Shown: positions 28,340 to 52,880, counted from the first letter of the stretch. The stretch: 64,000 bases of DNA from Raillietiella orientalis (GCA_036172245.1 JAYWIR010000045.1:1054001-1118000); one strand, 5' to 3'. Program-made: numbers and translations. Notes: generated from the sequence alone by a model not told the origin.

Positions 28340-30000
28340 GTTTTTTACCCGGTCACGCCGGGACGTTTATTTATATAAACGAGCTAGAAACAGTTGTTTC
28401 CAACCCACGACTATGTAGACATGCAGCGGAGATTCACCACTGGCACGCAGGCCAGGAAAACGGAAGAACACGGACGACTGAGGGGAGTCCAAAAAAAAAA
28501 AAATTTTTAAACTGGAGGAGTGGGCCAGGGAACTTCGGTGACGCTCCGCAGTCACCGGGAAACTCATAAGTTTCAGCACCAAAACCCCTGCGGAGCGTAT
28601 AGGGAAAAGGATGCGAGAACAAAAAAAAAAAAAATCAAGTAAAAATAAAATGAGGGCGGATCACCGGGTTCGTCGTTCTAAGCCGTTTCTCATCCGGGGA
28701 TGGATACCGGTTAGGTGCTCCGTTGTGTCTTCCCATAAGTGTCGCCACCCAGCTGCCGACCTGATGAAGTCGGCTGCCTTCCTGGTGACACAACATTGCT
28801 ATCCAGTGTTCTCCAGCACGTCTCGGACCGTGGCGATGGCGCGGATGCAACCAACAGTGGAAATCGTCGCAGCCATCGAAAGTCCTTGTGGCTGGAAGAA
28901 CCGTCGCAGCACTTCTCGAGCGGTTTCACCCGGAAGCGGGAGAGCTGCTGCTAGCCTCCTCCAGAGTTCCTGGAGGGCACCGCAGTCCATAACAAGGTGC
29001 GGGAACGACTCCGTCGCCCCGCACCGGGCACAGTAGGGAGAAGCCACCCCACCGGAAACTCGGTGGCGCCGCTCGTTGTAGCGCAAGCCCCAGTGCAAGA
29101 AGAGCAAGACGTCTTGCTTCCATGCAAGGGGAAACACCGAACCGTCCAAACACCAAGGAGGGATTGTAAGTTCCTCGGGGGCAACACCTAGTGCTTCTCC
29201 CCACCGAAGTAATCGCTTTGGTGTTGCACGAGGAGTGGCGGCATCCGCAAGCTCGCTCGTGACCCATTCGCCAACTGGTTTTGTTCTTCCTGCAATGGTG
29301 CAAGAGAACTCCCACTTCGCCGGCTGGCTACTGTCATCTCGATCCTCGAGTGCAGACAGTGCTTCGGCGAGGGGCGTGGCGGCCAGGGAGGAAAACTTCA
29401 CCTCGTCCTGCACGACATCTTGGAGGGACCAAGGTTGAAATCGACGCAGGGGGCGGAGATCTTCACGGCTCATTCCTAAGGATACAGCCCAAGAATCTAA
29501 GGATTCCTGCCGCCAAGCATTGTAGTTCATCGGGCAGCAGGAAATCCACGCATTGGCTTCCAATAGGGAGGCGATTTGCCTCAGAGGATAGCCAAATCCC
29601 TGTTTCCTGTGACGCATGCCAGGCACCAAGGAAAGAAGTCCTTCACTGCCTGCACACCTCCTTAGGAGGATGCGCGCGGGCGCACACAGGGGGGAAGTCC
29701 ATAGCCCAGCACACAGTGCGAGCATCCGGAACTGCACTTGCAGTCCGATTCTCTCCATCGTAAGGATGCCAAGACCAGCATCCCTTCCACAGAAGTCGCA
29801 GAGCCGCCGCCGGGGAATCCCGCCCCGAGTCAGAGGTGGTCAGCTCCTGTTTCCCCCGCTCATGAAGCACCTTCTCGCTTCGTGCAGTCATTGCCAGATT
29901 CCAAGCAGATCATTCCCTGGACAAGGAGAAAGAGAAAAAAGGAGTCATCAAGGATATAGCTCCCACCTGGTCTTCCCTCTGCTTTCACGGCGACCCTAAT
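28340..30000 (-). mobile_element. L1/Tx1-like LINE, 5'-truncated (subfamily A); best-preserved ORF2 piece is 28799-29758 (319 aa)
   Basis: LLWKG and RDAGLGILTMER upstream. ORF contains LHWGLRYNERRHR and the CCHC motif CARCGATESFPHLVMDC. T-rich 3'UTR ends in AATAAA plus the hairpin motif at 28348-28371. Confidence 0.85.
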
Positions 30001-30317
30001 TTGATGCTTCGAAACTTCGTTGCTCCCTCACTCCACTGGGATTTCTTCCTCTTTTAAAAAACGAACCTCTTATCGCTTCTCCTACCCCGCACTGGGATAG
30101 CTCACAAGGCCGACCGATCTTTCTCAGTTGCACCCTTTGTCCTTTCTCCCAATGCTCCATTCAAAATGCGACCTCCCAGAAAAGAGTAGTGCTTGCAGGT
30201 AGGCATCTCGGCCAATGTTTGAAACCCATTCTGCTGCCAGCCTCATGACAAGTGGAGGGATCATCAGAGGCGAACAGTTGCTGCCGCTTCACACGATGCT
30301 CGCAGCGTCTGCAGCGA

Positions 30318-31060
30318 GTTTTTCACCTGGTCACGCCGGAGCATTTCTTTATGGGAAAAAGGTAAACAAGCAAACCGGGAACGCAGCTTCCGAAAAAAAG
30401 ACAAAGAGAGGTTCACCCTCACGCATGGTCAGCTTGTAAGGAAGTCCGGAGCAGGAGGGAGGAGACAAGAATTCAGTAGGAAAAGAAAGGGAGGGTAGGG
30501 ACCTTCCTTTGCTCCAAACCTCTCTTTCTTTCAGAAGCCACTCCTTATAACCGGAGTGGATTGGTGGAGACCTCCCTGGCAACTTTTTCTTTCAGGTGAG
30601 GTCACCTCGCAGCCGCCCTCACGAAGGCGACCGCCATGCGGGTGGCCTCCCTTCGCTGCGCCGGACGCTCCAGCGCGTGACAGGCCGCGACGAAGGCGCG
30701 GATGCAACATCTCGTCGCAATCATAGCGTGCCTGTCGGGACTGCGCGCCTCGCGCAAAGAGTCCCCGCAGCAGGTCCGTAGCGGTGTCCTCCGGGCGACG
30801 GATCGCCAAAGATAGCTTCTTCCAGAATTCTCGAATCGAGGGTACCACAGCCCATCTCGAACGGCTTGGAGGTGCAACTCCTCCGGAAACGAGGTGCCTG
30901 CGCCGATGGAACTGAAATCCCCAATGCAGATGCAGCAGAACGTCCCGTTATCATCTCGAGGGAAGCGCCTAAGTGTTCGTGCACGGAAGAGTTCTGCGGG
31001 AGGCACACCTCAAAGTTCGATCCAGTGGAGCGCTCCCTTCGCCCGGAAGGGAAGAGGCCT
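30318..31060 (-). mobile_element. Subfamily A LINE 3' end; near-identical inverted copy of 52142-52880
   Basis: The ORF-track translations match those at 52-52.8 kb almost exactly. Contains LHWG...RRRHLVSGG with the CCHC deleted. Terminal motif at 30326-30340. Confidence 0.85.
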
Positions 31061-31099
31061 TCATACCACCTCTTCCTTTCCCTCAAACCAAACGTGCTG

Positions 31100-32190
31100 A
31101 TGCGGCCTGATCGAACTCAGCAACTAAGCCTCATCCCGTTCGTCTTCTCGGCGCTCTCCGCTCGACTGCCTGGTTCCTGCGTAGTCTTCCGGACAAATTC
31201 GTGCTTTCGCCTCAGGGAATGGGTGGGAGTCATCCTGTGTCCGGAAGACGCCCGTGCCCGGTTCGAAAAAAGAAACGACTTGCACCTCCGCGCAACCTTC
31301 TCAGCGACGCAAATCCAACGCGTTCGCACGGACACTCGTTCCTCCTGTCGCTTTCTGGAGGCACTCCTGAGTTGATCTGCCAAAGTGTCCTTATTTTGCA
31401 CGATGATCCCTTGACTCTTACAAGCCTCTTCAGTAGGAGCTTTCAGCAATGAGTTTGTCCTTCTCACTGCATGTTTATTGTCTGGGTGCTAAGAAACGCT
31501 CCGGAACAAGCAGTTGAGGGCAGGATGGAGCAGACAGCCCGTCGTTCGCAAAACCGCAGCGGTCAACCACCACCATCGTGGCACCGCCGGATCTGCTCGA
31601 TCACTTGCTGGGTGATGAGGGCAGATGAGAACGCGTGTCGAGGACAAGACCTCCGTGTTGCTGGCTCGAAGGTGGGCCAGTTTTCTGTTTCGGGTTCAGC
31701 TGCTCCCCCGACTTCGTCCAAGGCAGTAGTGGCCTAGTATGCGTCCTTGGGTAGCTGGCTTTCACGGTGATCTGTTTTTGTGCGCACCTGCGAGTGGCCG
31801 ACTACCCCTTCGCCACGACGCTGCAGGTCCTCGCGCGATGCTCCCGGTCGTCGGCATGCAGGCTCTTTTCATCCTGAGACTCATGCTACTTCCAGGGAGA
31901 CGAACTGTTTGCTCATGAGCATAGCGTAGCTCTGCGTGCGCTTTGTGAGTTCCCAGAAAACGTCTGCTCCCAAACGCCCGAGTTCAACCAGGAGGGTGTC
32001 TGTCAATGAGGAATAATTCCCCCTTCCTTCTCTTGAAATTTTCCGTCATTCTCCATCCCTGATCGTCTTTGTCTCGTACTTTTGATCCTTCCTCCTCCGG
32101 AAAAAGGTCAAGCATTTTTTCCTGGAGCCCTCCATAGCAAGAAAGGTCAGGAATTCCGTTCACTCTAGCCGCAAGCGTCCTCACCGAATG
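31100..32190 (-). mobile_element. Decayed LINE RT remnant
   Basis: RVNGIPDLSCY (~PGxDGIPxEFY, ~32150), GII...TLADQ (~LFADD, ~31390), KTNGMRLS (~SGMxIN, ~31130). Confidence 0.35.
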
Positions 32191-33099
32191 CTCGTGTAGG
32201 AGCGAGTGATTCTTTTTGTGGTTTCATCCTCCATAGACAAAGGAACTCTTTCTGTTTTTTTTCTTCGGTAGAGTGGGAGAGCAGAGGTGAGGAACACAAC
32301 CGCGTGGTTGTGTTCCTTACCTCTTTGCATTCCTTCTTTACTCTGTCGAAGGTACTGGTCTCTGGTGCTGCCAGATGACATCACAGGCAATACCTCAACG
32401 AGCTGCCCAGCACCGCGATATTGACGAGTAGTTTCGATTTTCGAGATGTTCAGCTTCCCCCGACCTGCCCTGCCAACGATCTGTTAAGTAGACAGGAGAA
32501 GCTTTCCAGCTACGAGATGTTCGTTCCGTCAAGGATGGAGTGCTTGTCTCCACTGAACGCCAGACTGATAACAGTCACAAAGTAAGCAACATTGTTCTTC
32601 CTCTCGAGATCGACCGAGATGATGTTAGTTCGGAGTGAACGCACAAGTTTCTGTGCGTTTCCGGTCCAGCGGAGCGGGAAATGGCTTAGAATGTCGGAGC
32701 AATCTACATTTCGCTCTGCCCGCGTTGCGGCTCACGCAGCCAACCACGTGTCCACTCTCACCTCCAGATCTGCCGCTGACATCACAAAAAAAACAAAAAC
32801 AAAAAGGCGCTTTCCGCACTCTGGAGAAGTGCCAACCATTCTGTGATGGAAGGATCTTTACGAGGGGAAGACGGCTCCATTTTCGCAACTGGAGGGAGAC
32901 CTCCGAAGAAGACCGACTCCTTGATCCTTGGAGAGACCTGGAGGGTCAACTTCCAAATCCCTGCCACTCGTCCGGGGCATCCGGCTTCCACCAGCGCGGT
33001 GTGAAACACCTTTGTGATTCCCCTCTTCCTTTTCTGCTTTTTGTTTGCCTCCCTCCATGCAGCATTAGAAAGCGGACATAGGACCTCCTGCGGATCTCC

Positions 33100-34490
33100 C
33101 TCTGGGGAATGTGAGGTTTGGAGGCCTCCTGAAGGACTTGTGTGCTCCGCACCGGGATGGCGGCCTAGACCTCCTGACGCTGGAGCGAATGGAGCTGCAG
33201 CTCCAGTTTCGACCACTTGCCCTCGTGGAAAACCTCTGGAGCACCACCTGGTGCTAACCTGCACGCCTTCCCGTCCAGCAAGCATCCGGCAGCGTGAGAC
33301 TCGCATCCTTCCTTGCGCACCGTCCACGCAGTCTCCTCCCCTAGGGACTGCATCTGCGGCAGGTGGCCACGCTAACGAGGAAAGACGGATGGATCTGGTG
33401 CAGCCCCTGCAAACGGTGGTGCCTGGTTACAGGAAACCGTTTGCATGCGGACGAGGATCCAGGAACCAAGCGCGGAATAGGTACGACGTTTCCTGTACGC
33501 GCGCACCAGCAACTCCGGAAGATCCTGGAAGATCCCGCGAAGAGTGCGTGGGCAAGCAGAACCTCCTTCCCAGCAGCGCTCAACTCCCTTAGGAAGTACA
33601 TGGGCAGCAGCCTTACGGCTAGATGGGAGGTCACTGTGGAAACCTCCGGAAGGAGGAAAGGACTGGGCAAGTGAACGACGGGCCAGCTCATCGACTCTGC
33701 AACCCCTATTGTTCGACCTCGTGGACTTTTGTACTGGAGTGTGCCACTGAGTATTCCGGAGGCAGACCTGCAGTAGCCCCCAACTCTCATGAACACCCGC
33801 ACCCTCCCCTCAAAGTGGCAGGAGTCGGCACTGATGCTGCTGCTCGGGGTCCTCTCGTGCAGCGCCCGCCGGCATCATTGGACACGGAGGGAAGGGGTGG
33901 ACCCGAACTGTGCAAGGTAAGGGGAGCGAGAAGCCCTCCCGCACCTGCTTGTGGGATTGCGTTGCTCTCCGCTCCCTTTTGGGAGCTTTGCCGCGGCCCT
34001 TGAAACCCCCGGCGGCAACGCCAGAGACCTTTGAAAGCGCGGCGCCCTCACGCCGGCCGCAGCCTCAGCAGCACTGCGCTGCCCACGCGGCGGGACCGTG
34101 GCTCCATGGAGCAATGCCAGAGGAGGCAACAACAACAGGGACGCCACCTATTTTGCTGTCCTCTTCATGAGGACGGCGTCAAGATGTCCCCATCCGGGAG
34201 TCTTGAAACAGGAACTTGCCGGCATCCTTGCAAGGATGCAAAGGACACTCTCCAGAACACAGTGATTTCCTTCCCGAACCCCCCCATTCTTCGACTGCAT
34301 ATTTTTTGTTTTATTCTTTTCTTTTTGTTTGTCTCCCCTTACCCTGCTGCCGAGGCGAACCCCGCTGGCCTGCGTGCCAGTTCCCGCCAACTTTCTTCTC
34401 GTATTTATAATTTACGTGACAGGATCAAACGTGCTGCCACAGACTGCCCTGTTTATTTTATAAATAAACGCCCCGACGTGACCGGGTACC
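33100..34490 (+). mobile_element. L1/Tx1-like LINE, 5'-truncated (subfamily B)
   Basis: LCAPHRDGGLDLLTLERMELQLQFR at ~33140; WEV...RKGLGK*TTGQLIDSATP; CCHC remnant PNCAR*GEREALPHLLVGL(~C) at ~33900; terminal motif at 34463-34486. Confidence 0.8.
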
Positions 34491-34639
34491 AACCAGTGCC
34501 GCACTCGAATCCCATGGACCAACCAGCGTCATCTTGCGAGGAGAAAAATACCATTTCTTGGCGTCGATCCTTCACGTAAGGATTCGAACTTGCATCGCCT
34601 GGTACCACGCGCGGAGACCGCGGTCACTCGGCCGCCAAC
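34487..34639 (-). mobile_element. 5' head of the tRNA-derived SINE (copy 3), fused to the LINE 3' end
   Basis: Minus strand reads TGGCGGCCGAGTGA (A-box-like) ... GTTCGAATCC (B-box, 34580-34589) ... ggatcgacgccaagaa ... caagatgacgctggttgg ... ggcactg. This is homologous to 4213-4362. Confidence 0.75.
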
Positions 34640-37600
34640 TTGCACCTCAGCCCTTTGGAGGGCGCTCGTCGAAGGAAACAGTGCGCTTCTTCATACACTC
34701 TCGAGAGGCATGAATCCAGCAACTCCATGGTAAGAGATAGTGGGGGTCTTCCCCACTCTCCGATGGGGGAGAACGGCTTCATTTGCCCAACCAGAGGGAA
34801 ACTCCGGAGGAAATCTGGCTCATGATTAAGGGGTGCAAAGCGAACCAGGGGACGGAGTTGGGAGCGGCACGTCTGCGCTCCTGTGCAGACTCTTCTCAAA
34901 GGATCGCGCGTATGGCTGGAGGAATCGCTCTTTAACGGGTGGTTACGGCTCCAAGGGAAAGGAGAGATTGCTGCAATGTCGTGGAATCCATTTATACAAG
35001 CAAAGGCTTGGCCTGGTAATTGGCAAGTTCATTTCGGATGGCGGAGACGGGAGCAGTAAATGAGGATTAAATATTCACCCGCGCATCCAGCTCGCTACGC
35101 TGCGATTTATCGGACGAGTGTGAAATACAGCGGGGACGTTGCGCATCCTAGCTGTGCACAAGAGAGAGGTTCTGGAGTCTCAACGTTAGATTGAGAAGAG
35201 GAGGAGGAAAAGAAAAAATATAGTTGTGGGTCGGACGAGTTTCGGACCTGAAGTACATGACTTATCAAAAGTGAAAGGTCTCGTGTACGCACCAACAAGG
35301 AATGAGCTGAGTTATCTGGAGGATGATCAAAGTGCCGGAGACTGGAGCTACCCAGAGAAAGATACTGAAGAGAGTTATGGGCGTGGCGAACGACAGAAGT
35401 GAGATTAGAAACCGAATTCGTCACAAGTATGTGAGCTCACCACGCGTAGGTGCCATAGAGATCACTCCGAGTTCATTGGAATCGAAACGCGTCCGGTAAA
35501 TCCATTTTAGAATATTCAGCTTTTGCAAATTGCGAATGTTTAAGACAGCAAACTTACGTGTTTGTGTATCGTACAAAATGTAAAGCATGCCGATCCCTTT
35601 TGAGAAAACATCGTCTCTGTCTGGCCGGCATCTCGAGGTGCGATGCCTCCAGCAAATGGAAAGCTCTGCATTCCAGTAAAATGCCTAAACGGAAGCTCGT
35701 GCAAAAAGAAAAAAAAAATCCCAATTTCCGATTCTTGCAAAGAGGGTTCTTAGAATGAATCCCAATTTTAGCGATGGATTCTGTGGCGAGCCAGCCTGGA
35801 CGCAGAAACAGATGCCAAACGTCACGTCGAACTGCTACGTGATCGCTGGACCCAGCTGAGAGCCAAACACCCAGTTGTCTTTGAAACTGAACCCAGTTCT
35901 GGTTAAACAAAGTTTCACTCGAAGACGAACAGACTCCAGAACTTGTTTCAGGAAAAGTCGGGATTTCGTAAAAGAACAAGTGCGAACGAATAAGGAGACA
36001 CACGATCTGAAGGAAGCCGCAGTAACAAGAGTATTGGATTCATGTAAGTGGAGTTTCAAGAACACATTCATGAAGGAAGCTCACGCCTTCCGGGATGGCC
36101 GAGTCTACGAGATCCCAGTCTTTGAAGAACTGTTCTTTCTTCAACTGGTCCCTTCACATCCGTAACAGACGTAAGATTCCTCCAGCTCGCAAATTTTACG
36201 TTACTTGCCTCTGGGCAAGGTATTAAGTACAAGTGCAAACGATTTCTGTCGGTGCGATCATCCTTAAAGGCATGCGCCGAATGCGCTGCAACGTAAGCTA
36301 CAGCGATACGGATTTCTCTCCTTGCCTAATCTCCCGCATGGAGACCTTCCCCTCCTGTCATCTTGGAGATTCAACACCGATAGTCAGACGACTGCTTTAA
36401 TCGACGTCCCATCGGATGGCATCACCAGCGTCGATTCCTGTCTCTCCGGGTGGATGATAGGAAGCATCGTGGAAGAAGTTGGCGTTGTGGAAGGACTCAC
36501 CCTCCTCCAGAGCTGGCAAAGCGCCTGTCTTCCAGACAATCCTCCCGCCTGGTCTGATTCGCATTCCTTCAGCGGAGCTGAGGCAGGAGGATCGGATGCA
36601 TCAGCACTCACTTGGAAACTCCCTGTGAGTGCAGAGCAGACAGAAAAAGTTCCGCACTTAAGTGAGAAGTTCCCACACACCTCGAAATTTCGCATCGGTT
36701 TTCAAGGGCCGTGTCTCTGTTTTGCCTGTCTTCTTTGTCTCTTTATTTGGGGTATTGAACCAGCTCCTGAGAGCATCATGCGAGCAGTCCCAGGCACCTG
36801 ATGGAGCACGGAAACTTGCAGTTCCCTCTAACAAAACAGAGCAGTGCGCTTGAGAGTAATGGATTATAGACTAAAGAACAGATACAGCTCGTTTCTTTTG
36901 AAGTGGCAGATTTCTGAGGATTCAGGAATGCTTCTCTAACGGAAGATATACTGTCTATTAAACTGGCCTGAAACTGTCTGGCAGGAGTTATCCATTTCCA
37001 GGAAACAGGAATGTGTTGTCCCCAGTCTGGACAGCAAGCATCAAAGATCTGTGTCTTCAGAAAGGGAGGTCCAAAAGAGATCTTCCTGCGAAAGACAACT
37101 GAAGGTATGAAAAGGGGAGACGAGATGCAAATGCAGCATTTATCGCTGGCTACAAGAATGGAGAAACCAAACGAAAAGTAACGTCGGATAACCGCAGCAG
37201 GCAACGTTGCGGATCCGGACGTAAGAAATGTAGAAGACACCTTCGGTCAGTGCGGTCCTTCCTCGCTGATGCAGAACGGATATGACACGGTTTGGGGAGA
37301 TGCCCTCGATGTTTCATTATTGTTTCCCTAGTCAAGAAGAGCAAGAATCTCCAGCACGCATTCCAACTTGGACCGAGTTCTCCGAATCACGTGGAATAGA
37401 CTAGCACATTTCCAGATAGGCGATTCCTTGAAGAGGAAGAGGGGGAATTATTTCCCTGAGGACAGGGATCTTTTCAGAAAAAGGTACAGGAAAAGCTGGG
37501 TGGCTGGATCGTTGCTGTTAACTTAGCCGGTGGCCATTTCAGGAGACCGATTCCTTTGATCACGAAGCGCAAGCGAAGTGCCTCCGAGACAGAGGACGGC

Positions 37601-40600
37601 CGAGCTATGCTGAAGTTGAGGCGCGAGCACGGTGCTGAAAGCGTTTGTCTGGGTAAATTCCTAGGAAAAAAGATCTGTCTAAATTCGTCGGTGATGCGGA
37701 TGCTTGGTGGGCATCCGGATCAATTTTGACCGGAGGACTTCTTTGTTATTCATGGGTCAGTTCTTCGTCGGCATCTTCTGTAACCACGCTCGATTACAGT
37801 TTGAGTCAACCAGCTGCGGGAAATGTTTCTGGAACGGACTCCTGAGAATCTCAGAATGACGGAGCCGGATGCCACTCCAGGGATGAAAACCATGAAAGGT
37901 TTGGAAAATTCCGTGAAAGGTCCGGAAAGAAGAGTTCTTGCCCATGTGGCATGCGAATTCCGTCTCTGGGGAGACAGTCGAGTTCGAGAGAAACACATCC
38001 AAGAAAGTTCATTGGAAAAAACTCAACACTTAAGAGCAGTGTTACTAGCCAGAATAATCATTGGGATGGCTTTTCGTCGTGTTCCTGCAGTGAAGCTCGC
38101 GAATCCATGTGTCCTGAAGGGAAATTCCTCAAACTAGTTAAAAATCCTGTCGAGCGCCTGGAAAAGGAAGACATATCTGGAGGGCGAAGAACGGAGGCAG
38201 AAGAATGCAGATCCGCCTCAGGGTGCAAGGAAGAAACAGGAGAAGCTTTCGTTCTCCGGAAGGAGGGTGATCTTATTCGAGTCCGACAGCTTGAGTCAGT
38301 CCGACAGGATGCAATGCACTCTGGGGGCCTGGATTCCATGTTCCCTTCCGCATCCCCTACTTGGTGCACGAAGCCTAACCTCACGCATAGGTCCCTTGGA
38401 TTTGTGCAACGTTGATAACTCTTGGAGAAGGATGGGAGGAAGCAAGCGCGCGATTGCTCGTCTCTTCTGCCTTGGTGCCACGTGAGCCACATTAAGAACC
38501 GAGTTCTTCAATCGCAGTCCCTGAGAGTGCACCGGACAATGCAGTGAGGGGATTGAGTATGTTGGTTGTTGCGATGGGAACCTCCAACGAAACGCTCATG
38601 CAATGACCGTCCTTGAAGATCGACTTTTACCATCAGCTGGGCCATTTCTCGCGCTTCCTTCTTCACGCATTGGCCTACCTCAAAACTCGTGCATGCTCTG
38701 CTCAAAGTTCCAAGCCGCAGATTTGGCCTGGTCCTGGAATTGCACCCTGACGAGATGCTGATCATTTTGCTTGTGGATGCTCCATCCCGACTGTTCTTCT
38801 TCGAAATGTCTCGCAGTGGCGGTCGTTCGACTTACCAAGAAAAGTAGAACTGTAGTTTGAAGACTGCCGTCAATTTGCTGATGGAAAAGTACAGCCGACT
38901 CGGTGCCTGAGGAACCACGCAGACGCAAAAAGTTGTCAGCAGCATCCTACGCAGCTGACAGGGTACATGCATTTTGTATAGGGACACGATAAACGCGGGT
39001 CGGAAGCGATTCAGCATCCTCTCTCCGGGTAGTCAACCTTGGCTTTCTTCCTGTTACCGAGGCCATTCGTGGAGAAGAGGAACGCTGCGCTATGATGGCC
39101 AAAGAGGTGACTGAGGCAAGCACAACACTGTGGCTCAAAATGGAAAACGCACCAGAGGTGCGCCATCGTTGTAGGCAGATGAAACCAATGAATGAAATGG
39201 CAAGCGACCTCGAAGTATTCTAAGAGAGACATTGGTGACCATGAAAATAATCGCGGGCGAAAACACACGCCATCTCCCTGATAAAACTCAGCAGAATCAA
39301 ATTCTAATCGCAAAGGGAAATTCTGGCTACATGCTCCTTTGGTGATGGTTGGAAGCGCTGCGATCTACCGTTTTCATCCACTGTAATTTTACATGACGCG
39401 ATCTCTCAATGAATGCCGAAAGAAAAACACTTTCTGCGTCCAGGACATTCGGCAGCATCGCGTGAGCAGTTCCAAGACTGTCGTGTTAAATGAATTCTTG
39501 CCCTCAGAACTTTTGCCCTCAAGGGAGGAAGGAGTCCTCTCGAATACTTGCCCCCTGGCATTTTCCTTGCGGCGAACCGACGACAGCAGTAGAGAAACAA
39601 TCGGGGACGAAAGCTCCAGAGTCCACCATCCAGTGAGGAGATGCACGGCGATTCCTGATCACGAAAGGAAGAGGTCAGCGAACTGCGCTGGACTGCACTA
39701 GATCTCTAGTTCTCTTACCAGCAGTGGCCATCTGCACATTGTTCACTAAACATTCATCCATGCCCCACGTCTCAATTTACTGTGACATCTGAGTACCCGC
39801 CGGGAAACGGATGGCGGATCGATCTTGCCATCGGTGCCTGAAATCTCGAGACCAGCTGCCAAACGTGATGAATCGTTCAGTTCGACACTTTCGACTCTGC
39901 ACCATCGGGCACGGCAGCCTGATCGGCTACACCATGGCACCGTGAGGCCGGTGGGGCGATCCTGACCTTCAGCGAAGAGGCAGCTGGCATGAGGTCGTCG
40001 AACTAGCCACAATAGAAAAGCGAATCCTATCACATTGAAGAACATAAAGACAGTATAAACTCCTTTATGCTGTGCTGCTAGATTCTACTCAGTGGAGCTC
40101 TGCTGCAGCTGGTGACACATCCAGTGAATGGACCAATCTTGCCTCATGTGATTCGAGATAGCATTCTCCAGTTTATCACGTGAATGCAGAAATGTTGACA
40201 TTCAAGAAAGGTTAATGCTGATATATGAATTAATAGCAAAGCCGCAAGCAGGAGCTTGTGTTGGAGATGTTTCCTTGTGGCACAGCCTCACTTGTCAGAC
40301 AGACTGTTTGAGCATATCCATCTGCCTACATTAGTACGGTTGCAGCCCGTTTCCCAGAAGTTTAGCAATGAATTAGGGAGAATATTTTATAGATGATTTT
40401 TTTTTCTTGGCGACTTGACAGAAAAAGGAATTGCGTCATCATATTGGATGCAAGATGGATGGCAAGACTGAGTTTTCAGCACTGCTCGCCATGGACATGC
40501 ATCTGTGCAGCTCTCTTCGAGAGGCGCTCAATGAGTACTCTCAAACTGGTGCGTCTTCGATACTTTTGTCGAGATGCTCTTGGGAAGTGAGATGGCTTTG

Positions 40601-42779: not shown

Positions 42780-43090
42780 AAGTGCAGCTGGACGCTCAAT
42801 AGGGAGGTGCTTTTCCCCGTCTGCCCTCCAGGAAGTTGTTTATGGCGCTCCTGGATGGCAAGCTGCAGGGGAATAAAGGCTCCCGGCTCTCGGTGAGAAT
42901 GGACGAACAGCCCCCTTCTCTGGAAGAGGTAACCCCGGCAGTCCTCCTTCCTCCTGGCATCCCAACGGTCTCGGAGCGCGCTTGGACGGACGGCAAACCC
43001 ATGGGACGCTTCTCCTCCTCGCTTCCCGCTGAATACACTGCCGACCGCAGGGCGTGCGCCCGTAAACCTTCGGTGACCCTTCCCTTGTCC
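42780..43090 (-). mobile_element. APE-endonuclease remnant
   Basis: LRDRW...GYLFQR resembles LxDxW...YTF. Confidence 0.3.
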
Positions 43091-43099
43091 TCCATTTCG

Positions 43100-44100
43100 T
43101 TTCTTACCCTGTTGCTCCGGGACGTTTACTTGAAAAGAATTAACCATCTGGTAACAAAGTTCCCAAGCAAAGAGACGAGAAGTTCAAGGGGAGGGCTCCC
43201 CAACACACAGGTCCATACTGAAAGTCCAGAACGGAAGGGAGGGGACAATAAATAAAAAAAAAAAAGAAGATATGAGGGAAGGGGATCGGGGTCTTAGGCT
43301 TCGGTCGTTCCTTCTTCTCAGAACCGGTGCTGAATTCCGGAGATCTCCTTCCTGACTTCTTCGCTGATGTGAGGCCACCTGCAGCCATCTTCATGTTGTA
43401 GGCTGCAGTCCTGGTGACCTCTGTTGAGATTGCTCTCGATTCCAACAGGCGGCGGGCCGTGGCGATGGCGCGGATGCACAGGTCGTTGCGATGACCGCAC
43501 CTAGCGAGAGTCTGCCGCGTGTGAAGAAGCGGCGCATAATGGCGATGTCCCCCTGGTGCAGGAGCGCTGAAGGCAGCCTCCACCACAGTCCTTCAAGGGC
43601 ACCGCAGTCGAAGAGCAGGTGCGGGAGCGATTCCACATTTCCCCGCATCTTCTACAGTCCGGGTACGCAACTCCACCCGGAAAACAGGTGCGCGCGCTGA
43701 TTGCAACGGAAACCCCAATGCAACAGCAGAAGCGCGTCCTGTGTCCACCTAAGGGGAAACACAGATATGCCCACGCGTGAGGGAGGGAACCACAAGTTCT
43801 CGGGGGCACACTCATGAGTTCGCACCACCAAAGGAGTCCCTTATCTGCGAGGAGTGCAGCGTCTGCCAGCTCGCTCGTCTTCCAGCCGTTCATGGGTCTC
43901 GTTGCCTTCCATTTCGGGGAGGAACTGCCGGTCCCACACATTGCCAGAGCTCCTCGTGCTAGCCCGACCTTCCCGTGCAATCCCGGGCTCTCGGTTCTCA
44001 GGTGCCTGCGATTCCGAAGGATTCCTGCTGTTCCTGTGTGGTTCGGGAGTCTTGCCGTCCTCGGCACCTAGAGAATCCGATTCTCGCGTCCGCGTCGGTA
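43100..44100 (-). mobile_element. Subfamily A LINE 3' portion
   Basis: WKTSELADAA...KGLLWW; LLLHWGFRCNQRAHL; CRRCG plus ESLPHLLFDC (frameshifted); KKERPKP; terminal motif variant AGTAAACGTCCCGGAGCAACAGGG at 43107-43130. Confidence 0.8.
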
Positions 44101-44749
44101 GGGACCTCAACTCGCTTTTGTCGTCAAGAAAACGGACGGTTCCCGACGAGCCCCTGCGTGTTCCTTCCTCCACCTCGCCAGAGCTCTCGCGGTTCCCCGG
44201 ACAGCACTCTGCACTCGCTGATGATGATCCTCCGGAAGCGAATTCCCTTTTCCCAGAAGCTACCCTCCGGGAAGCTTTCCGGATGGGACATCCCGCCCTT
44301 TCCTTCCAACGAGACGATCGATGCTTCCCTCAGCCGATTTCGAGGATAAACATAGAGAACGTCTCCCCTTTCTCAGTCTGAATAAATTTCTCAGCTTCAG
44401 AGTTTCATCCCTCAGCCTAGTGGACTACCTGTTCTGGACATCGCGGATTCTTCTTTGGAGAGCGGAAAGGAAGGGGGGGAAAATGGGGGGTTTGATAGTT
44501 GACGAAGGCAGATGATAACAGTTTGACGTGGTGGGCACCCGTTCCCAACTTTGAACACTGCCGGAAGATACCAGGACAACTCTTCCGCGAAAGCCGGAAC
44601 GGCAGGCCACCAGGATCCTCCAGAAGAGGGAGGGCTACTCCGAACAGCTTGGGGACAGCTCCAGAGATCATTCCTGCCATAACTTCCGACCGGAGGACTC
44701 TCTTCTCCCGAACTCTCTCTCTTCTCCGTTTCGAAGGGTCCTAGAGATG

Positions 44750-45450
44750 TCCCCGAGTGTGGCAGCGCGCCGAGCGAGGGGAGCAGCAAGCTCTCTAAGC
44801 AACCCGCCCATCTCCCAAAGGCAGTTGGACCTAGAGGAGTGGAGTCCGAACTGCAGCAGGTGCGGGGAAAGGGAGTCCTTTCCGCACCTGCTTGTGGGTT
44901 GTGTCGCCCTCTACCCCCTGTGGGAACGCTTTGTCGCGTCCCTGCGGAACACCAAGGGCAACTCCAGAGACGTTTTGAAGCGCTTCTTCCTGCGCGACGC
45001 TCTCACGCTGGCCACATCCCTAGCAGCACTGTACTGCCACGCGGCAGGTCTGTGGCAGTGTGAAGCAACGCAAGAGGAGGAGTCCAGGACGATAGGGATG
45101 CCATCTATTTTCTGGTTCTCTTCATGAGGATAGCGTCAAGATAACCCCATCTGGAAACCTTAAAACAGAAACTTGCCGGCATTCTGCAAAGAATGCAAAG
45201 GTTCCCTCCAGTACCCAGTGATCCCTTCCCGAACCCTCCTAATTTTTTTCATATATGTTTATTTTGCTTTATTTTTGTTTTTTGTTTGTCTCCCTCCTTT
45301 TCTGCTACTGTGGAGAACCTCGCTGGCCTGCTCGTCGGTTCTCGGCAAGTTCCTTGTAGTAGATTTAGAATATAGCAGGACCAAGCGTCCTGCCACTGAC
45401 CTACATGTTTATTTTTTTTATAAATAAACGCTCCGGCGCAACCGGGTGTC
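44750..45450 (+). mobile_element. Subfamily B LINE 3' end
   Basis: ORF 44747-45127 contains CSRCGERESFPHLLVGC...LWERF...VLKRFF. The 3'UTR is homologous to 34160-34490. Terminal motif at 45423-45446. Confidence 0.85.
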
Positions 45451-46189
45451 ATCCCAAAGGCAGTCTGATACAGCGACCACCAGGTGGATGGCAGATCGAT
45501 GTCAAGCAAGTAAGAGTAGATTTTATTCTGATTCGAGACAACGGGTGCGAACGCGTATCCGAGGGGAGAAAGTGATCCTTTCACTTGAGAGCGAAGATGG
45601 GGGCTTCTGAGTGCAAATGCTACCGCGCCTTCTTCTTCCCACTTCGTGGTCCCTTCCGAGAGAGGGAAGGGCGCTCCGTTCCAGGATCGCCTTCTCTGCT
45701 CAGAGTTCGTCTCGGAAGCAGCGCTCCATAGTCGGAGGACAGCTTTTTTCCAAAACTCTCTGATCAGGTTCGCGGAGCAGCATCCGTATCACTGAAGGTC
45801 AAGCCTGCAGGAAGGAAAGAGACTCCAGTGTCATTTATCCCTCGACCTCAGGATGAGAAGTTCCGAAGCATTGCATAAGATGCGCGTTCTTCTCCAGGTC
45901 AGGGTACAGTATATAGTGGTCCTCTTCCTCTATGCAGTCCACGCTGTTCCATCACTCGCTGGCTGGTGGGCATCCCGTTCGTGCACGGGAGCAACGCTCC
46001 GCTCCTCCCGAACCGAGGGTTGGTAGGTCACTCGCCGCTATAGATGTGGTAAAACCTACTCCTTTCAGGTCCCAGATGGAAGATATGACCTCGTTTGGGG
46101 GGGTTGGTCTTCGGAAGACGCGGTCCTCCTCTTCCTCTACGAGAGCCGGAGGAGAGGATGAGGTTATGGGAGCCGAGCAAACATGAAAC

Positions 46190-46495
46190 AGCGCAGGGAC
46201 CGGACGGGAAGGGAGAGGCAGGGGAAGGAAACTGACGGGCGGTTCCGGGTCGATCCAGAGGGATCGGCATGGTGATATGCTTCCAGTCGAAGCGGACGAA
46301 AGGGAGCACGACTCTCAGGGCATCTCTCCACCCTCGGTACGTTTCCTGTCCATGAGTCTCTCGCCATCTGCGTGCTCAGTCGGCCCGCCTTGCATGGCGC
46401 TCTCCTGCCGGCGTCTGTTGATCCGCATCTTGACTTCCATGGCACGACCGTGGGTCCCCGTTCTTCATCTTCCGAAAAAATTCTTTGCTCCTGGG
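46190..46495 (-). mobile_element. Possible C-terminal fragment of a third LINE family
   Basis: The frame ends ...WRDALRVVLPFVRFDWKHITMPIPLDRPG and is followed by a pyrimidine-rich tail. No catalytic motif. Confidence 0.25.
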
Positions 46496-46502
46496 TGGCT
46501 TC

Positions 46503-47900
46503 ATCACCCGGTCATGCCGGAGCTTTTATTATAAAAAATAAACATACCTGCGTAGGGTCATCGGCCCTACATTGTCCGAAAATACTCGGAACCTGCCGAG
46601 TACCTAACACGCAAGCCGGAGAGGTTCGCCTCGGCAGCGAAGGGGGAAGGGGCAAACAAAAATAAAATAAAAGCACTATATACAAAAAAAAGGGAGGCAT
46701 TCGGGAAGGGACCACTAGGAGCTGGAGGGTGTCCACTGCATCATTTCCAGGATGCCGGCAAACTCCTTTTGAGTATGCCCCAGAGGGAGCCATCTTGCTG
46801 CTGTCCTCAGGAAGCGCAGGGAGGATCAGATGGCGTTCCTATTGCGCCGTTCTCCTCTTGAGTAGTTTTAGGCTGCCACAATCCTGAGTAGGCAGCAGCA
46901 AAAAGCTGCTGGGGATGCGGCAGGCGAAAGAACATCGCACACGAAGAGGCGACCCTGGGATTGTCCGTCGGTGCAGCAAGGGCCGTTGCGAAACGCAACC
47001 ACAGGGGCCGGATGGCAGCACAGTCTGCAAGCACGTGCGGGAGGGATTCCCGTTCCGCGCACCTGCAACAGTTGGGGTCCACAGCTCCCCTGGTTCAGAA
47101 AGACCGGTGGGCGTTGCATGGGAGACCCCAGTGAAACAGCAGAAGTGTCGATCCCTTTCACTATTCAGGGGGAGTGCCCGGTTGTTCTTCAGCGCTGGGG
47201 GCCATTCGAGGCTTTCTGTTGGATTTCCAGGAGCTCGCTCCAGCTCAACAGTCCCTTCGGTGAAGCACTTGGGGTTGCAGCGTCCGTTAGCTGGCGCGTG
47301 GTCCAACCACCTAATTCCTTCCTTCCCGGAATTTCACATTGGATCTCCCATTTGTCCAGATGATTACGGTCCAAGTGCTCTCTGAGGGAGGATAGTGCCT
47401 CAACTATGGAGGTTCTTTGTGCCCACGCACACTGGTGGGCTTCACGATGACGTCCTGCAGCGAGCGGTTGCTCTAAAAGGAGTGCAGCAGTCGCTGACGC
47501 ATCTCCAGGCTCGCTTCGTTGTTCTTGGCCCATGTGCAGACGTTTCCTGCAACCAGACACTACCGTTCGCAGGCCGGCAGAAGATCCAGTTGTTGGTCCT
47601 GGTCAGCGTGGCCACTCGCCGGAGTTTCAGTTCTCAGCGGGACACTTTGCGTCTGCGCCGCCGCGCCAGGAACGAAGACAGTGCCACGTAACCGGCGACT
47701 GGCTCGACCAGATATCGTGCGGGCTCGTGCCAGTTCATGCTCCAAAGATTCGCCACTAGGGTAAGCATTCTCCACTGGAGCTGCCACTCCTGGCGCTCCA
47801 GCGTCAGGAGACCGAGGCCTCCGTCACGACGCGGAGCGCACAAGCTCTTCAGGCGGACTCGGGTTCAACGGGAGTTTGCTCTGGGTGGGTGGAAGTCTCG
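46503..47900 (-). mobile_element. Subfamily B LINE, 5'-truncated
   Basis: LCAPRRDGGLGLLTLERQEWQLQWR; KELGGWTTRQLTDAATP...KGLLSW; CCRCAERESLPHVLADC; terminal motif at 46507-46530. Confidence 0.85.
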
Positions 47901-48269
47901 CCGTTCTCTCCTTCCCCAGAATGGGTCGCGCCAGTCGACTGACGCGGACCAGCAGGCCCACCATGGGAAGACCGGTAGAGAAGAAGGAGAGCTCTCCCTT
48001 CCTCCTGAGAGGTGCAGAGAACCACGGCCACTCGTCACTCCTACCGGGAGAGGGTTCCAGAGTTTTGCTCCGAGAGAAGCGCTCGGCGAGACTTTCGCGC
48101 TTTCCAGGAACCAGAGAGAGCGCGCCGCCTTGGCACGGCATCCTCTTCATCTCTCGACCGCTCGCGACATCGGAAGAACGGAGAAAGGGTAGGCTCTGCA
48201 TCACAAGCAGGCACCTAAGGGTGCGGTCCAGACCTTCCCCTGGACACGCCGAAGCGTTTGCTGGAAGAT

Positions 48270-48480
48270 CAATAAACAAAAGGCTGGGAAAATAGAAGCT
48301 CCCGAAACGAGAAAGGAAAAAACAGTCCCAAGAGGAGGGTCCGCCGATGCTCAGGTCGGTTGCCGGCGCAGTTAGGGGCGGGAGAGAAGGGACAGCCAAT
48401 AAAAAAGTAGAAAGAAGAGCATAAGGACAGGGGGGTCACTGGTTTCGGCCGTTCCTTCTTCCTGGAACCAAGACTGGATG
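48270..48480 (-). mobile_element. Short subfamily A ORF-end/3'UTR fragment
   Basis: KKERPKPVTP followed by a T-rich UTR, as at 43250-43320. Confidence 0.55.
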
Positions 48481-48489
48481 ACACCGATC

Positions 48490-49072
48490 TCCCTCTTCCA
48501 ACAAGAAGAGGACACCGTCCGTAACCCGATGCGGCGATCCTTCGCGCGTGGCCGACTCTCGGCTGGCTCAGCGATCTCGACGGCATGTTGCTTGAGCGCC
48601 GTCGTCATGGCCCGTCGTGTCTCGCAGACACGGGAGCAGCGAAGGGGTCACCCGCGTGGAGGAGGCCGCCTTCGTGATGACGGCTGCGAGGTGTCCCCAC
48701 CTCGAAGAAGAGGACAAAATGGAGATCCATGGCCATCCAGCGCCGCTTCTAAAAGGAAGGAACGGCCGAAACTGGGAAACCCCTGTCCCCACCCTCCCTT
48801 TATTTATTTTTTGTCCCCTTCCACCCATTCTGGGCTTTTCACGGTTTTTGTTTTTTTCTCTAGAAGGAACGGTGCAAACCCAAAACCTGCGTGCCTACCT
48901 CCACCATTTCGTCTGCTGTTTCCTCTCTCCCGTTCCCTATTTTAAGATGTTCTGATCTGCGCGTCGGTGGGTCTCCTTTTGAACTTTTTTTGTTTCTTCG
49001 GCCGGGAACTGCGTGTTCCCAACCGGTTACTTTTTGTTAAGTAAACACCCCAGTATGACCGGGCGAGAAACT
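48490..49072 (+). mobile_element. Subfamily A LINE 3' end
   Basis: MRRSFARG...ISTACCLSAVVMARRV...GGRLRDDGCEV...KERPK. Terminal motif variant AGTAAACACCCCAGTATGACCGGG at 49040-49063. Confidence 0.8.
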
Positions 49073-49079
49073 TCCTCTT

Positions 49080-49960
49080 CCAGGCAAGGCCACCTCCTAG
49101 CCGTCATCACGTGGGGGCGAAGGGGGGGCGCCATACGAGTGGCCGCCCTCCACTGCGTCTGGCGTCTGCAGGATGTGGCGGGCCGTGACGATGGAGGGCG
49201 CGATGCGGGGAAGAGGGTCAGGGAAACGAATGCTTTTCTGAGATGTAGCGCAGTTCCTCACCCGGCCACACGGGGAAGTTTATTTAAAGATAAATAAATA
49301 AACAGGCAGGTTGAGGAAAAGACAGCTCTTGAAGCGAAGAAAGAAAAGAAAATTCCAAGGAAAAGGTCACTCAGACTGGTCACTGCGACAGTCACGAGCG
49401 AGAAGGAATAAGTGAATAAATAGATGAAGAGAGAGTGGGGATAAGGGTCCTTGGCTCCTCACCGGAGCCCAGAATTCTGGCGATCTCCGTCTTTACTTTT
49501 CATCCAGGCGAAGTCACCTCGTAGCCGCTCTCATGTAGGGCGGCTGCCGTGCGAGCGACCTCCCTTCGCCAAGGATTGGCCCTACGTCGTCATCTTTCGG
49601 TCCCTCCCTCGTTCTGTCCCCAGTGCGGTTTGGTCTCAAGGCCGCGTTTTCCAGGTTCTTCATTGTCGTGAGTTTCCATTCATTTATTTACCGGAGACAC
49701 GTGACTCTACATGACTACCTACGAGGATGAAACCCCGGAAAAATTTGCGCGGTTCATCCGGAGACGTGAGGAGCACACGGGACGTCGAAAAGGCGAGCAG
49801 CCAGTCGACTAGAGTCTCCCTGGCTCCCGGACAGACGGCGAATCCCAGCTGACAGCCGGAGGCATCACGCTGGATAGGGTCATGAGGAAAGGAACCGCTT
49901 CCAGGCAGAGAGCGCAATCCTGCGCTGAAAGGTGCGGGAAACTCTTGTTCGAAAGCACCC
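49080..49960 (-). mobile_element. Cluster of subfamily A fragments (49080-49200; 49252-49620 with a terminal motif; ~49780-49960 with a CCHC remnant)
   Basis: IVTARHIL...RDDG*EV; AKGGRSHGSR; KSFPHL...DC. Terminal motif at 49261-49284. Confidence 0.6.
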
Positions 49961-50524
49961 GGACCAATGGAAAACCCTGCCCTGAGAGGAGCTGCATCGC
50001 GCATCAATTCATGACCCATTTTCCGAAAGCTACGATCGGTTCCGAAATCACGGCTGCACGTGCTGCTCGGCTGAACCCGGTGGGCACAGCGAAGAGCGTC
50101 CAGAAAAGGCGGCGGCTAAGGCCGAGGATGCTGCGGATGTCATGGCGCGTCGCGAGAGCCACTGCCAGCAGCCGTTCGGGTCGATCCGCACGACACGAGG
50201 CGATGGCCAGCTGCGCGTCGCTAAGGAGGACGTGAAGGGTGGGGAGCCGAGGGCAGAGGACTCCAGACGTCGACTCTCAGCTGTGTCACGATCTTCTACC
50301 GTGAAGTGTTCGGACTTGATCCCAGACGCAGGGCGGCACCTTCCGAGGACAGTCCGGGAGCATCTGGGCTGGACAGAGGAAGCAAGGAGAGCAATGCCGT
50401 GGCGCCGCTATCCGGAAGTCCTCCGAGGGGCACGCTGACATTAGTGCGCGCGTGCAACCCTCGTGAGATCGCTAGGGTCGTGGGGTCCAGCCAACGATAA
50501 GATGTGCCAAAATCCCTCGACAAT

Positions 50525-51330
50525 GACCCCGCCGATATGCAACCTCGATTGCTCGACCTCGTGGACTTTTGTGCTGGGGCGTACTCCTGGGTATTCCGGA
50601 GGCAGACCTGCAGTGGCCCCCAACTCTCATGAACACCCGCACCCTCCCCTCAAAGTGGCAGGAGTCGGCACTGATGCTGCTGCTCGGGGTCCTCTCGTGC
50701 AGCGCCCGCCGGCATCATTGGACACGGAGGGAAGGGGTGGACCCGAACTGTGCAAGGTAAGGGGAGCGAGAAGCCCTCCCGCACCTGCTTGTGGGATTGC
50801 GTTGCTCTCCGCTCCCTTTGGGGAGCTTTGCCGCGGCCCTTGAAACCCCCGGCGGCAACGCCAGAGACCTTTGAAAGCGCGGCGCCCTCACGCCGGCCGC
50901 AGCCTCAGCAGCACTGCGCTGCCCACGCGGCGGGACCGTGGCTCCATGGAGCAATGCCAGAGGAGGCAACAACAACAGGGACGCCACCTATTTTGCTGTC
51001 CTCTTCATGAGGACGGCGTCAAGATGTCCCCATCCGGGAGTCTTGAAACAGGAACTTGCCGGCATCCTTGCAAGGATGCAAAGGACACTCTCCAGAACAC
51101 AGTGATTTCCTTCCCGAACCCCCCCATTCTTCGACTGCATATTTTTTGTTTTATTCTTTTCTTTTTGTTTGTCTCCCCTTACCCTGCTGCCGAGGCGAAC
51201 CCCGCTGGCCTGCGTGCCAGTTCCCGCCAACTTTCTTCTCGTATTTATAATTTACGTGACAGGATCAAACGTGCTGCCACAGACTGCCCTGTTTATTTTA
51301 TAAATAAACGCCCCGACGTGACCGGGTACC
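50525..51330 (+). mobile_element. Subfamily B LINE 3' end; near-identical to 33751-34490
   Basis: Direct sequence identity at an offset of 16,840. Terminal motif at 51303-51326. Confidence 0.85.
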
Positions 51331-51479
51331 AACCAGTGCCGCACTCGAATCCCATGGACCAACCAGCGTCATCTTGCGAGGAGAAAAATACCATTTCTTG
51401 GCGTCGATCCTCCACGTAAGGATTCGAACTTGCATCGCCTGGTACCACGCGCGGAGACCGCGGTCACACGGTTTCCAAC
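51327..51479 (-). mobile_element. 5' head of the tRNA-derived SINE (copy 4), fused to the LINE 3' end
   Basis: Duplicate of 34487-34639. B-box at 51420-51429. Confidence 0.75.
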
Positions 51480-51739
51480 GCGGGCCGACATAAGGGATGT
51501 CTTCAAGATCAAGCGAGGATGTTGTCAAGCACTGACAAATGCTCTCAACATCAAGCAAGTTCAGTAACACTTTCCCACATGCGGGGAAGTTCAGCGATCC
51601 GCTCCCCTCGCCTTGCGCTCCCTGCTCCTGGAAAAAAACAGCCATCGAAAACGGACAAGCAAGATCGATGCTGCTCAGAGCCCGAATTTTCTAGAACCCG
51701 GATTCCATTGTTCCCACGTGATGAAACTTCAGAGGGCGC

Positions 51740-52880
51740 ATGTGGGCGTCGGGCTATGGAAGGTCACGACCAGAAAGATCCGAGTCCGGAAACGGGCAAG
51801 CGACTCTCTGAGAGACGTGCTGAGGAAGGAAACCAGCGTCACAGCTCAAGGTGCGGAACCGGAGTTCCAGCTTCAGGGAGGCATATTGGCATCAGGAGGC
51901 TGACTCGAGATGCGAGCGGTCATGCTGCCGGGAGGACCCGCAAAAGGCGCATTCTCGATCCTTCGATGCTGGTTTTTTCTAAGAAGAGCTCTCCAAGCGT
52001 TGGATCGCTCACCCACCGATAGAGTAGTGGCTTTCCGGAAGGATGAGGGAGTTCTGCGCCGTTGCGGGAGTCACGAAACTCCTGGACGGCTGGACTACGA
52101 GAGTAATGACCGGCGTCTACAAACTCCTGTGGATGCCGCCACTCTTCCCTCCTGGGCGAAAGGAGCGCTCCACTGGATCGAACTTTGAGGTGTGCCTCCC
52201 GCAGAACTCTTCCGTGCACGAACACTTAGGCGCTTCCCTCGAGATGATAACGGGACGTTCTGCTGCATCTGCATTGGGGATTTCAGTTCCATCGGCGCAG
52301 GCACCTCGTTTCCGGAGGAGTTGCACCTCCAAGCCGTTCGAGATGGGCTGTGGTACCCTCGATTCGAGAATTCTGGAAGAAGCTATCTTTGGCGATCCGC
52401 CGCCCGGAGGACACCGCTACGGACCTGCTGCGGGGACTCTTCGCGCGAGGCGCGCAGTCCCGACAGGCACGCTATGATTGCGACGAGATGTTGCATCCGC
52501 GCCTTCGTCGCGGCCTGTCACGCGCTGGAGCGTCCGGCGCAGCGAAGGGAGGCCACCCGCATGGCGGTCGCCTTCGTGAGGGCGGCTGCGAGGTGACCTC
52601 ACCTGAAAGAAAAAGTTGCCAGGGAGGTCTCCACCAATCCACTCCGGTTATAAGGAGTGGCTTCTGAAAGAAAGAGAGGTTTGGAGCAAAGGAAGGTCCC
52701 TACCCTCCCTTTCTTTTCCTACTGAATTCTTGTCTCCTCCCTCCTGCTCCGGACTTCCTTACAAGCTGACCATGCGTGAGGGTGAACCTCTCTTTGTCTT
52801 TTTTTCGGAAGCTGCGTTCCCGGTTTGCTTGTTTACCTTTTTCCCATAAAGAAATGCTCCGGCGTGACCGGATGGAAACC
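51740..52880 (+). mobile_element. Subfamily A LINE, 5'-truncated
   Basis: LWKV/G...KIR; EFQLQ; KLLDGWTTR...VDAATLP...KGALHW; DVLLHLHWG; GGRLREGGCEV. Terminal motif TCCGGCGTGACCGGA at 52858-52872. Confidence 0.8.

Follow-up and report, generated by a model that had tools for sequence, protein, structure and literature searches.

We analysed a 64,000-nt stretch of the Raillietiella orientalis genome (GCA_036172245.1, JAYWIR010000045.1:1054001-1118000), hereafter the window. Between positions 28,340 and 52,880 it carries ten 3' ends of long interspersed nuclear elements (LINEs), each finishing in the same short cassette: AATAAA, 3 nt, a 5-bp GC hairpin and T-G-N-N-A(A). The results below show that this cassette forms the genuine 3' terminus of LINEs belonging to an L1/Tx1-group radiation; the terminus is real, borne by the elements and found genome-wide. 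All ten ends quoted in the initial annotation were recovered in place (Table 1). Similarity to the C-terminus of open reading frame 2 (ORF2) was detected upstream of nine of the ten motifs. A search upstream of the copy at 49260 found no ORF2 similarity, and what links this copy to the LINEs is solely a 73-nt match, 79% identical, with the 30325/52873 family. The ends had been assigned to two divergent subfamilies; they form eight clusters by 3' untranslated region (UTR) instead. They represent nine independent insertions, because 148 of 153 bases downstream of the end at 34472 recur behind the end at 51312, which marks the two as one insertion plus its duplicate. All LINE copies in the window are 5'-truncated, and the stem or the hexamer is damaged in six of the ten. 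Several of the hairpins, folded singly, were no more stable than shuffles.

Table 1. LINE 3' ends and associated features of the window. SL1 is a second hairpin, upstream of the cassette.
Feature	Position	Strand	Remarks	Target-site duplication
Cassette motifs, minus strand	28347-28371, 30325-30349, 43106-43130, 46506-46530, 49260-49284	-	sequence match	
Cassette motifs, plus strand	34463-34487, 45423-45447, 49040-49064, 51303-51327, 52849-52873	+	sequence match	
5'-truncated L1/Tx1-group LINE, family A (ORF2 C-terminal third, 3' UTR)	28342..29779	-	cassette 28342-28371	exact, 17 bp: 28325-28341 and 29780-29796
SL1 of the 28342..29779 copy (5-bp stem, loop CTGCGT)	28440..28455	-		
5'-truncated LINE	30320..31056	-	cassette 30320-30349	looked for, none found
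5'-truncated LINE, cluster F5	32998..34491	+	SL1 34365-34380, cassette 34463-34491	8 bp, one mismatch: 32990-32997 and 34492-34499
Head of tRNA-like short repeat (like a short interspersed nuclear element, SINE), fixed-site antisense target of cluster F5	34492..34639	-		
5'-truncated LINE	43101..43907	-	SL1 43200-43215, cassette 43101-43130	candidate, 9 bp: 43908-43916
5'-truncated LINE	44826..45451	+	SL1 45323-45338, cassette 45423-45451	exact, 13 bp: 44813-44825 and 45452-45464
5'-truncated LINE	46501..47864	-	cassette 46501-46530	looked for, no clear one found
Short decayed LINE	48497..49069	+	SL1 48952-48967, cassette 49040-49069; 5' boundary approximate; tblastx match to family F4, E 1e-9	
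Short decayed 3' end	49255..49570	-	cassette 49255-49284; 5' boundary approximate; LINE origin from similarity to the 30320/52878 family alone	
Duplicate of 33698-34639 (LINE 3' part and SINE-like flank), 98% identical	50538..51479	+	cassette 51303-51331; not an independent insertion	
5'-truncated LINE, sibling of 30320-31056	52142..52878	+	cassette 52849-52878	

The genome search proposed in the initial annotation was performed on the animal's own assembly (210 Mb, 491 contigs). The pattern AATAAA-N4-CCGG-N5-CCGGGT matched 2,240 times (1130+1110), and the same pattern read backwards gave 0 matches. A total of 785 kb of DNA was fetched; it was chosen around motif and LINE matches and is hence not a random sample. 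A weight matrix with a score of at least 14 yielded 152 matches, corresponding to 146 distinct ends, in this DNA and 0 in its reversed counterpart. Sufficient upstream DNA was available for 143 of the 146 ends, which were grouped into 57 clusters (80% identity over 120 nt), with one representative taken from each. The motif lay 100-520 nt past the stop codon of 104 of the 114 ORF2 C-termini with room behind them. Three of the remaining ten had a degenerate motif and seven had neither form; no A run above 8 was present in any of these ten, and several were visibly interrupted. The spacing within the cassette, described initially as invariant, holds in the window and fails genome-wide, as the CCGG arms are six bases apart in 483 exact copies. 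A metagenome scan with a 27-base pattern returned 7 matches, and no similarity to LINE proteins lay within 1.5 kb of any of them.

Six full-length or near full-length relatives of 5.5-5.9 kb carry both ORF1 and ORF2. Several full-length 5' ends, L054, L070 and L094 among them, have GACGTG within the first 15 nt, which resembles the downstream promoter motif of insect LINEs. The ORF2 product of ~1,205 aa (proteins of 1208 and 1203 aa were examined) matched Exo_endo_phos (APE endonuclease) and RVT_1. Its best solved-structure match was human L1 ORF2p (E 4.6e-45), compared with E 6.9e-16 for R2. A separate upstream ORF1, 5' truncation and variable duplications of 9-17 bp were observed, as in the L1 group. 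Two CCHC knuckles were present in each of the six ORF1 products (zf-CCHC, E 1.6e-5), and C-x2-C-x8-H-x4-C was found at the ORF2 C-terminus in three window copies; the zf-RVT match (E 0.09) was below the cut-off. Eight sampled reverse transcriptases (RTs) were 67-89% identical to each other, and the database relatives were 20-34% identical, with the exception of one JGI protein. This protein, P0098, nests inside the radiation, and its RT is 83% identical to that of family F18 (known from protein alone). In an RT tree of 151 rows, with no named Tx1 element among them, the families and a sister lineage, D, formed a long-branch group (support 0.926) with no supported sister. The knuckled ORF1 and the target specificity described below point to a possible placement in Tx1 rather than L1. 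CCHC-knuckled (type I) ORF1 has been linked to the Tx1 clade in the available text of PMC5203782.

The initial annotation had offered two origins for the hairpin: a part of L1/Tx1-group elements without poly(A), or the conserved half of a specific genomic target site. The search for target-site duplications that it had proposed revealed, among the 146 ends, exact upstream repeats of 11-39 nt that begin at +5 (5 cases) or +6 (10 cases) counted from the stem; each of the other offsets from -22 to +59 had 0-4 cases. Since the duplications start 5-6 nt past the stem and leave the hairpin out, the hairpin is copied from the element RNA and does not come from the target. Inserts as short as 72, 84 and 29 nt between duplications keep the hairpin, and family X has a constant 9-bp duplication. 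In favour of a target half, the hairpin does stand directly before a 5' junction in tandem arrays. However, it was absent beside 16 of the 17 5' junctions listed, the 17th being a tandem copy. Of the 13 upstream matches that start inside the cassette, 12 trace to the end of another copy (ten to the scored 3' end of another element and two, visibly, to the hairpin of the preceding tandem copy); the other is an 11-nt match elsewhere. The hairpin is also absent from an empty family X target in an intact family Y ORF2 (L066), and the loops and tails are family-specific. The fetched DNA had 104 matches to the hairpin, of which 95 stand behind AATAAA; the remaining nine are mostly normal ends read on the opposite strand. 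The duplication boundaries and the ORF2 association thus uphold the element origin; the same boundaries, the 5' junctions, the empty family X target and the family-specific loops and tails refute the target half, which retains practically no probability.

The sequence between the stem and the duplication was nearly constant. In the 57 representatives it reads T (54), G (45), N, N, A (54), A (54), and T-N3-AA follows the stem in 1,894 of the 2,240 exact copies. Counting from that A point, five or more A were found in 10 of the 2,240 copies and six or more in 2, which bears out the earlier observation that a poly(A) tail is missing; the longest A run among the 146 ends was 6. These ends therefore have neither the poly(A) tail of relaxed mammalian-type L1 nor the tandem repeat that follows the stem-loop in the L2-type UnaL2 tail: a single T-G-N-N-A-A is followed by the duplication. 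The target word of each family started at a single offset in 20/20 copies of family X, 14/17 of A, 4/4 of F6, 6/7 of F5 and 7/9 of F3. A search free of the hexamer detected three matches with eight or more A. The first is a 1.9-kb truncated copy that ends in TGT+A14 followed by an 11-bp duplication, the other copy of which has no A run. The second is a 29-nt insert consisting of the hairpin and TGT+A11 inside an 11-bp duplication. The third, with A10, lacks a convincing duplication. Two further copies have about three extra A ahead of 15-bp duplications. The A11-A14 exceptions suggest that the RNA is polyadenylated where ordinary copies stop and that the tail is normally not copied.

Lineage D, whose RT is 35-40% identical to the RTs of the main radiation, has an end of comparable layout: AATAAA, 4 nt, a 24-nt bulged hairpin with CCCCA and TGGGG arms and without CCGG arms, 4 nt, then the duplication. 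This terminus was found in 220 exact genome copies compared to 0 for the control. In 14 of 100 copies listed, an inner C-G pair is swapped to G-C. The lineage D copies at C1 and C33 lie antisense in what reads as ORF1 of other LINEs. The element ends 24 nt past AATAAA (main form), 25 nt past it (six-spacer copies) or 32 nt past it (lineage D), and always 4-6 nt past the stem. The element end follows the stem, not the hexamer.

Each pair of the terminal stem was kept in 48-53 of the 57 representatives, and the loop occurred in 29 forms. The variation of the outer pair had been considered compatible with pairing, and the larger sample does not support it as evidence: the representatives have C-G (48), C-A (4), T-G (3), G-G (1) and C-T (1), and the sole T-A copy has a 98.9%-identical sibling with T-G. 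At the central pair the left side differs in 277 copies and the right side in 252. The covariation check on the terminal stem (central pair tested; other pairs viewed in the 57 representatives) revealed decay, not covariation. Invariant arms around a free loop would also suit an inverted repeat that acts as DNA, for example as a dimeric-protein site affecting termination or silencing, with its terminal place incidental to priming. This is very improbable, as the arm spacing varies (5 or 6 nt), and in many six-spacer copies a sixth pair, G-C or A-T, closes a four-base loop (it is unpaired in others). Furthermore, lineage D has another sequence in the same place, and the element end is fixed to the hairpin within a base.

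SL1, a 5-bp hairpin with the loop CTGCG(T), is located ~100-120 nt upstream and was found in 33 of the 57 representatives compared to 9.8 expected from shuffles. In 29 representatives picked by the loop alone, 82% of the cells were paired and 23 double changes were observed, involving all five pairs. A middle hairpin of free sequence was clear in some families. From SL1 and the swap in lineage D we infer that RNA structure in the 3' UTR is probably under selection.

Collectively, these sequence features make it probable that we are dealing with stringent-type L1/Tx1-group LINEs in which reverse transcription starts at a point set by the hairpin. AATAAA would be a working polyadenylation signal, and the RNA would be cut and polyadenylated ~24 nt downstream, just behind the hairpin. 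The ORF2 protein would hold the structured 3' UTR, comprising the covarying SL1, often a second variable hairpin, and the terminal hairpin. Target-primed reverse transcription would begin on the first A or two of the tail, 5-6 nt past the terminal stem, and therefore the tail would normally not be copied. The terminal hairpin would act as a ruler, as in stringent-type LINEs. The conserved stem-loop near the 3' end that marks the stringent type is present here as the terminal hairpin, the covarying SL1 and the lineage D hairpin. By analogy, the terminus appears to work like that of a stringent LINE, and membership of this class, including ORF2p binding, is putative.

Several observations weigh against this proposal. 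Most of the 146 ends have no duplication of at least 11 nt (being old, nested, longer than the fetched DNA, or with 9 bp as in family X). Among the listed copies with a changed left side of the terminal-stem central pair, the right side was also changed in 17 of 100 and was complementary in 10 of those, which is approximately what independent decay and transitions would give. An invariant stem fits sequence recognition at the RNA or the DNA level equally well. SL1 is restricted to 33 of the 57 representatives, and although none of 500 shuffles scored as high as its alignment, relatedness inflates this test and the alignment left out 28 of the 57 (loop absent or doubled). For the middle hairpin, just 14 of the 57 reached z <= -2. 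The C-G to G-C swap in lineage D may be one inherited event, and the A tails of the rare copies could derive from non-templated addition or later slippage.

The terminal hairpin may alternatively be mainly a 3'-processing element. In that case the host would cut at a fixed site without help from the flanking DNA, the template tail would be short or trimmed, RT would start at the last RNA base, and ORF2p would recognise SL1, whose conserved loop and covarying stem are typical of protein-bound RNA. The hairpin is placed accordingly, between AATAAA and the end, and one stem is common to dozens of families, as a host-read signal would be. A stem plus ~5 nt is also a geometry that recalls histone mRNA ends. 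On balance we find this doubtful. The A11-A14 copies end at the same point, pointing to the occasional use of long-tailed templates; lineage D has a different stem; and the LINE hairpin is unlike the histone stem-loop of this genome. A histone-like end was rejected on sequence: the host histone genes carry the canonical GGCCCTTTTCAGGGCC, which the LINE hairpin does not resemble, and the window gave no Rfam match. None of the Rfam, tRNA and tandem-repeat scans of the window accounted for the motif. Even if the hairpin were only a processing signal, it would still be a compact poly(A) site carrying its own cleavage position.

The downstream flanks of 71 of the 146 ends in the fetched DNA matched one of six reference elements. 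Fixed insertion sites were identified for families X, A, F3, F4, F5, F6, F7 and F11; a shared flank was not seen for several other clusters. Family X inserts in sense directly behind the codons for the family Y endonuclease, giving 5.9-kb tandem arrays. Transduction of 3' DNA as the cause of the shared family X flanks was rejected, as both flanks continue one interrupted family Y ORF2. Insertion is antisense for family F3, in the RT motif D-x-x-KAFD, and for families F4, F6, F7 and F11, at other places in ORF2. Across L051-L067 and L071-L110, LINE families occupy fixed positions in the coding sequence of their siblings, for the most part in antisense. Most F5 copies examined, including that of the window, lie antisense in a tRNA-like short repeat. 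The repeat has 40 scored genomic matches, 71-82% identical apart from the window pair, and appears to be SINE-like. F5 uses one site of this repeat (window 34492-34639, L006, L014, L020, L022, L068), and the left flank GCTTCC is identical in three junctions. Target choice appears to be separate from the hairpin and is presumably set by the endonuclease.

The targets also bear on a read-through RNA template, in which synthesis would start internally just past the hairpin, flanking RNA bases would pair with the nicked target, and a family would inherit its target from the flank of its parent. Read-through RNA reportedly has a role in R1Bm. Annealing of RNA to the target near the 3' end has been proposed for SART1Bm (available text of PMC7265360). 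In favour of this model, families with 67-89% RT identity have different fixed targets, and where family A and its relatives have inserted off target, the first bases of the duplication are still preserved (A-Y-Y-T pattern). However, endonuclease specificity accounts for the same target pattern, and several junctions have G at -1, a sign of some preference on the left side of the nick, where RNA cannot pair. In every family the distance of AATAAA is fixed, and rare copies do carry poly(A). We therefore rate a read-through template as decidedly unlikely.

Returning to the hairpin as a starting point for reverse transcription, a broader joint reading can be put forward tentatively. An animal L1-group RT would use a hairpin after the poly(A) signal as a ruler and prime at the base of the poly(A) rather than within it, giving base-exact, tail-less junctions. 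The design would be kept by structure, not sequence, across two lineages with 35-40% identity in RT. Because dozens of families share one terminal stem and differ in their targets, the ORF2p of any family might copy the RNA of another into its own site, and the exact end may let flanking RNA guide or reinforce the target. This combination is possible, and we hold it with reserve.

Comparison with known systems, based on the available portions of the cited papers, places the terminus among several partial parallels. Stringent L1-clade LINEs with 3' hairpins have been described in monocots (LINE1-1_ZM lineage) and in Chlamydomonas (L1-1_CR) (PMC3472496), and L1 families without a 3' repeat account for 9 of 233 in flowering plants and 5 of 15 in green algae (Table 1 of PMC3472496). 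Those elements and the ones studied here are L1-clade LINEs with a conserved, structured 3' end, and their hairpin, with compensatory changes and a conserved loop, resembles SL1 (PMC3472496). In contrast, the evidence there was a shared SINE tail, and L1-1_CR ends in poly(A) (PMC3472496), whereas here the host is an animal, the last hairpin is downstream of AATAAA, the stem is invariant, the loop is free and the end is exact within a base. The stringent L2-clade elements UnaL2, ZfL2-1 and ZfL2-2 are similar in having a 3' stem-loop, which is required for retrotransposition and bound by ORF2p, and copies without poly(A) (PMC4176376, PMC3747384). They belong to a different clade, UnaL2 ends in TGTAA repeats and each of these LINEs recognises its cognate stem-loop (PMC4176376, PMC3747384), whereas the present ends have no terminal repeat and one terminal stem for dozens of families.

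The Tx1-group elements Tx1-Mar, Tx1-9_AMi, Kibi, Koshi and Keno share the APE endonuclease and RT, a CCHC ORF1 and family-specific insertion into other repeats (PMC4494074). Their targets are DNA transposons, long terminal repeat elements, microsatellites and RNA genes (PMC4494074), unlike the many sibling-LINE coding positions and the one tRNA-like repeat found here. The available text of that paper does not mention a terminal hairpin, and the SINEU partners end in poly(A) (PMC4494074). SART1Bm and R7Ag of the R1 clade also combine stringent recognition of a stem-loop 3' UTR with an accurate RT start, which in their case depends on the poly(A) tail (PMC7265360). Poly(A), averaging ~20 bp in SART1Bm, is retained in the genomic copies of these elements (PMC7265360), compared with six or more A in 2/2,240 copies here. 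In human L1, a position-conserved 3' stem-loop has likewise been proposed as an ORF2p recognition element, but human L1 primes within poly(A) and copies it. Because mammalian L1 primes inside poly(A), it also copies Alu and mRNAs (PMC3472496, PMC4176376).

These comparisons suggest an unusual variant of the known recognition by LINEs of their own RNA, one with an animal L1-group element, a hairpin after AATAAA and a tail-less, exact end. For animal L1-group elements, a literature search turned up no account of a hairpin placed between AATAAA and an end without a tail, though Repbase/Dfam, most subscription papers and supplements lay outside its reach. The available text of PMC3472496 and PMC4176376 leaves open by what route L1-group enzymes passed between specific and relaxed RNA recognition. 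The present radiation of animal L1-group elements, whose 1,200-aa ORF2s are intact, whose ends are exact to the base and whose cassette measures 30 nt, together with a sister lineage that has a different hairpin, makes the stringent state directly testable. Exact tail-less 3' junctions and family-specific target sites are also features sought for RNA-templated gene-insertion tools.

Within the window, the copy at 28342..29779 shows 65% aa identity to residues 824-1208 of the family X ORF2, and the siblings at 30320..31056 and 52142-52878 are 98.9% identical with different flanks. The duplicated block (33698-34639/50538-51479) starts within the LINE and runs to roughly where the antisense tRNA-like repeat has its 5' end. 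Neither a duplication nor an A tail was seen at its edges, and the block may have arisen by duplication of DNA or as a chimera copied from the promoter of the short repeat itself. An eleventh LINE 3' region at 315-880 (+) contains SL1 and is cut just before AATAAA, so that it has no terminal cassette. A decayed fragment at 56461-57200 (+) resembles the ORF2 endonuclease region with ~30% identity. Near-perfect local inverted repeats of 42-62 nt are located at 20168-20227, 21044-21105 and 32283-32324, and diverged repeat pairs at 4229-4913/10988-11664 (64%, inverted) and 14513-14753/17006-17232 (67%, direct). Over 58001-64000 the GC content falls from ~0.54 to 0.32-0.38.

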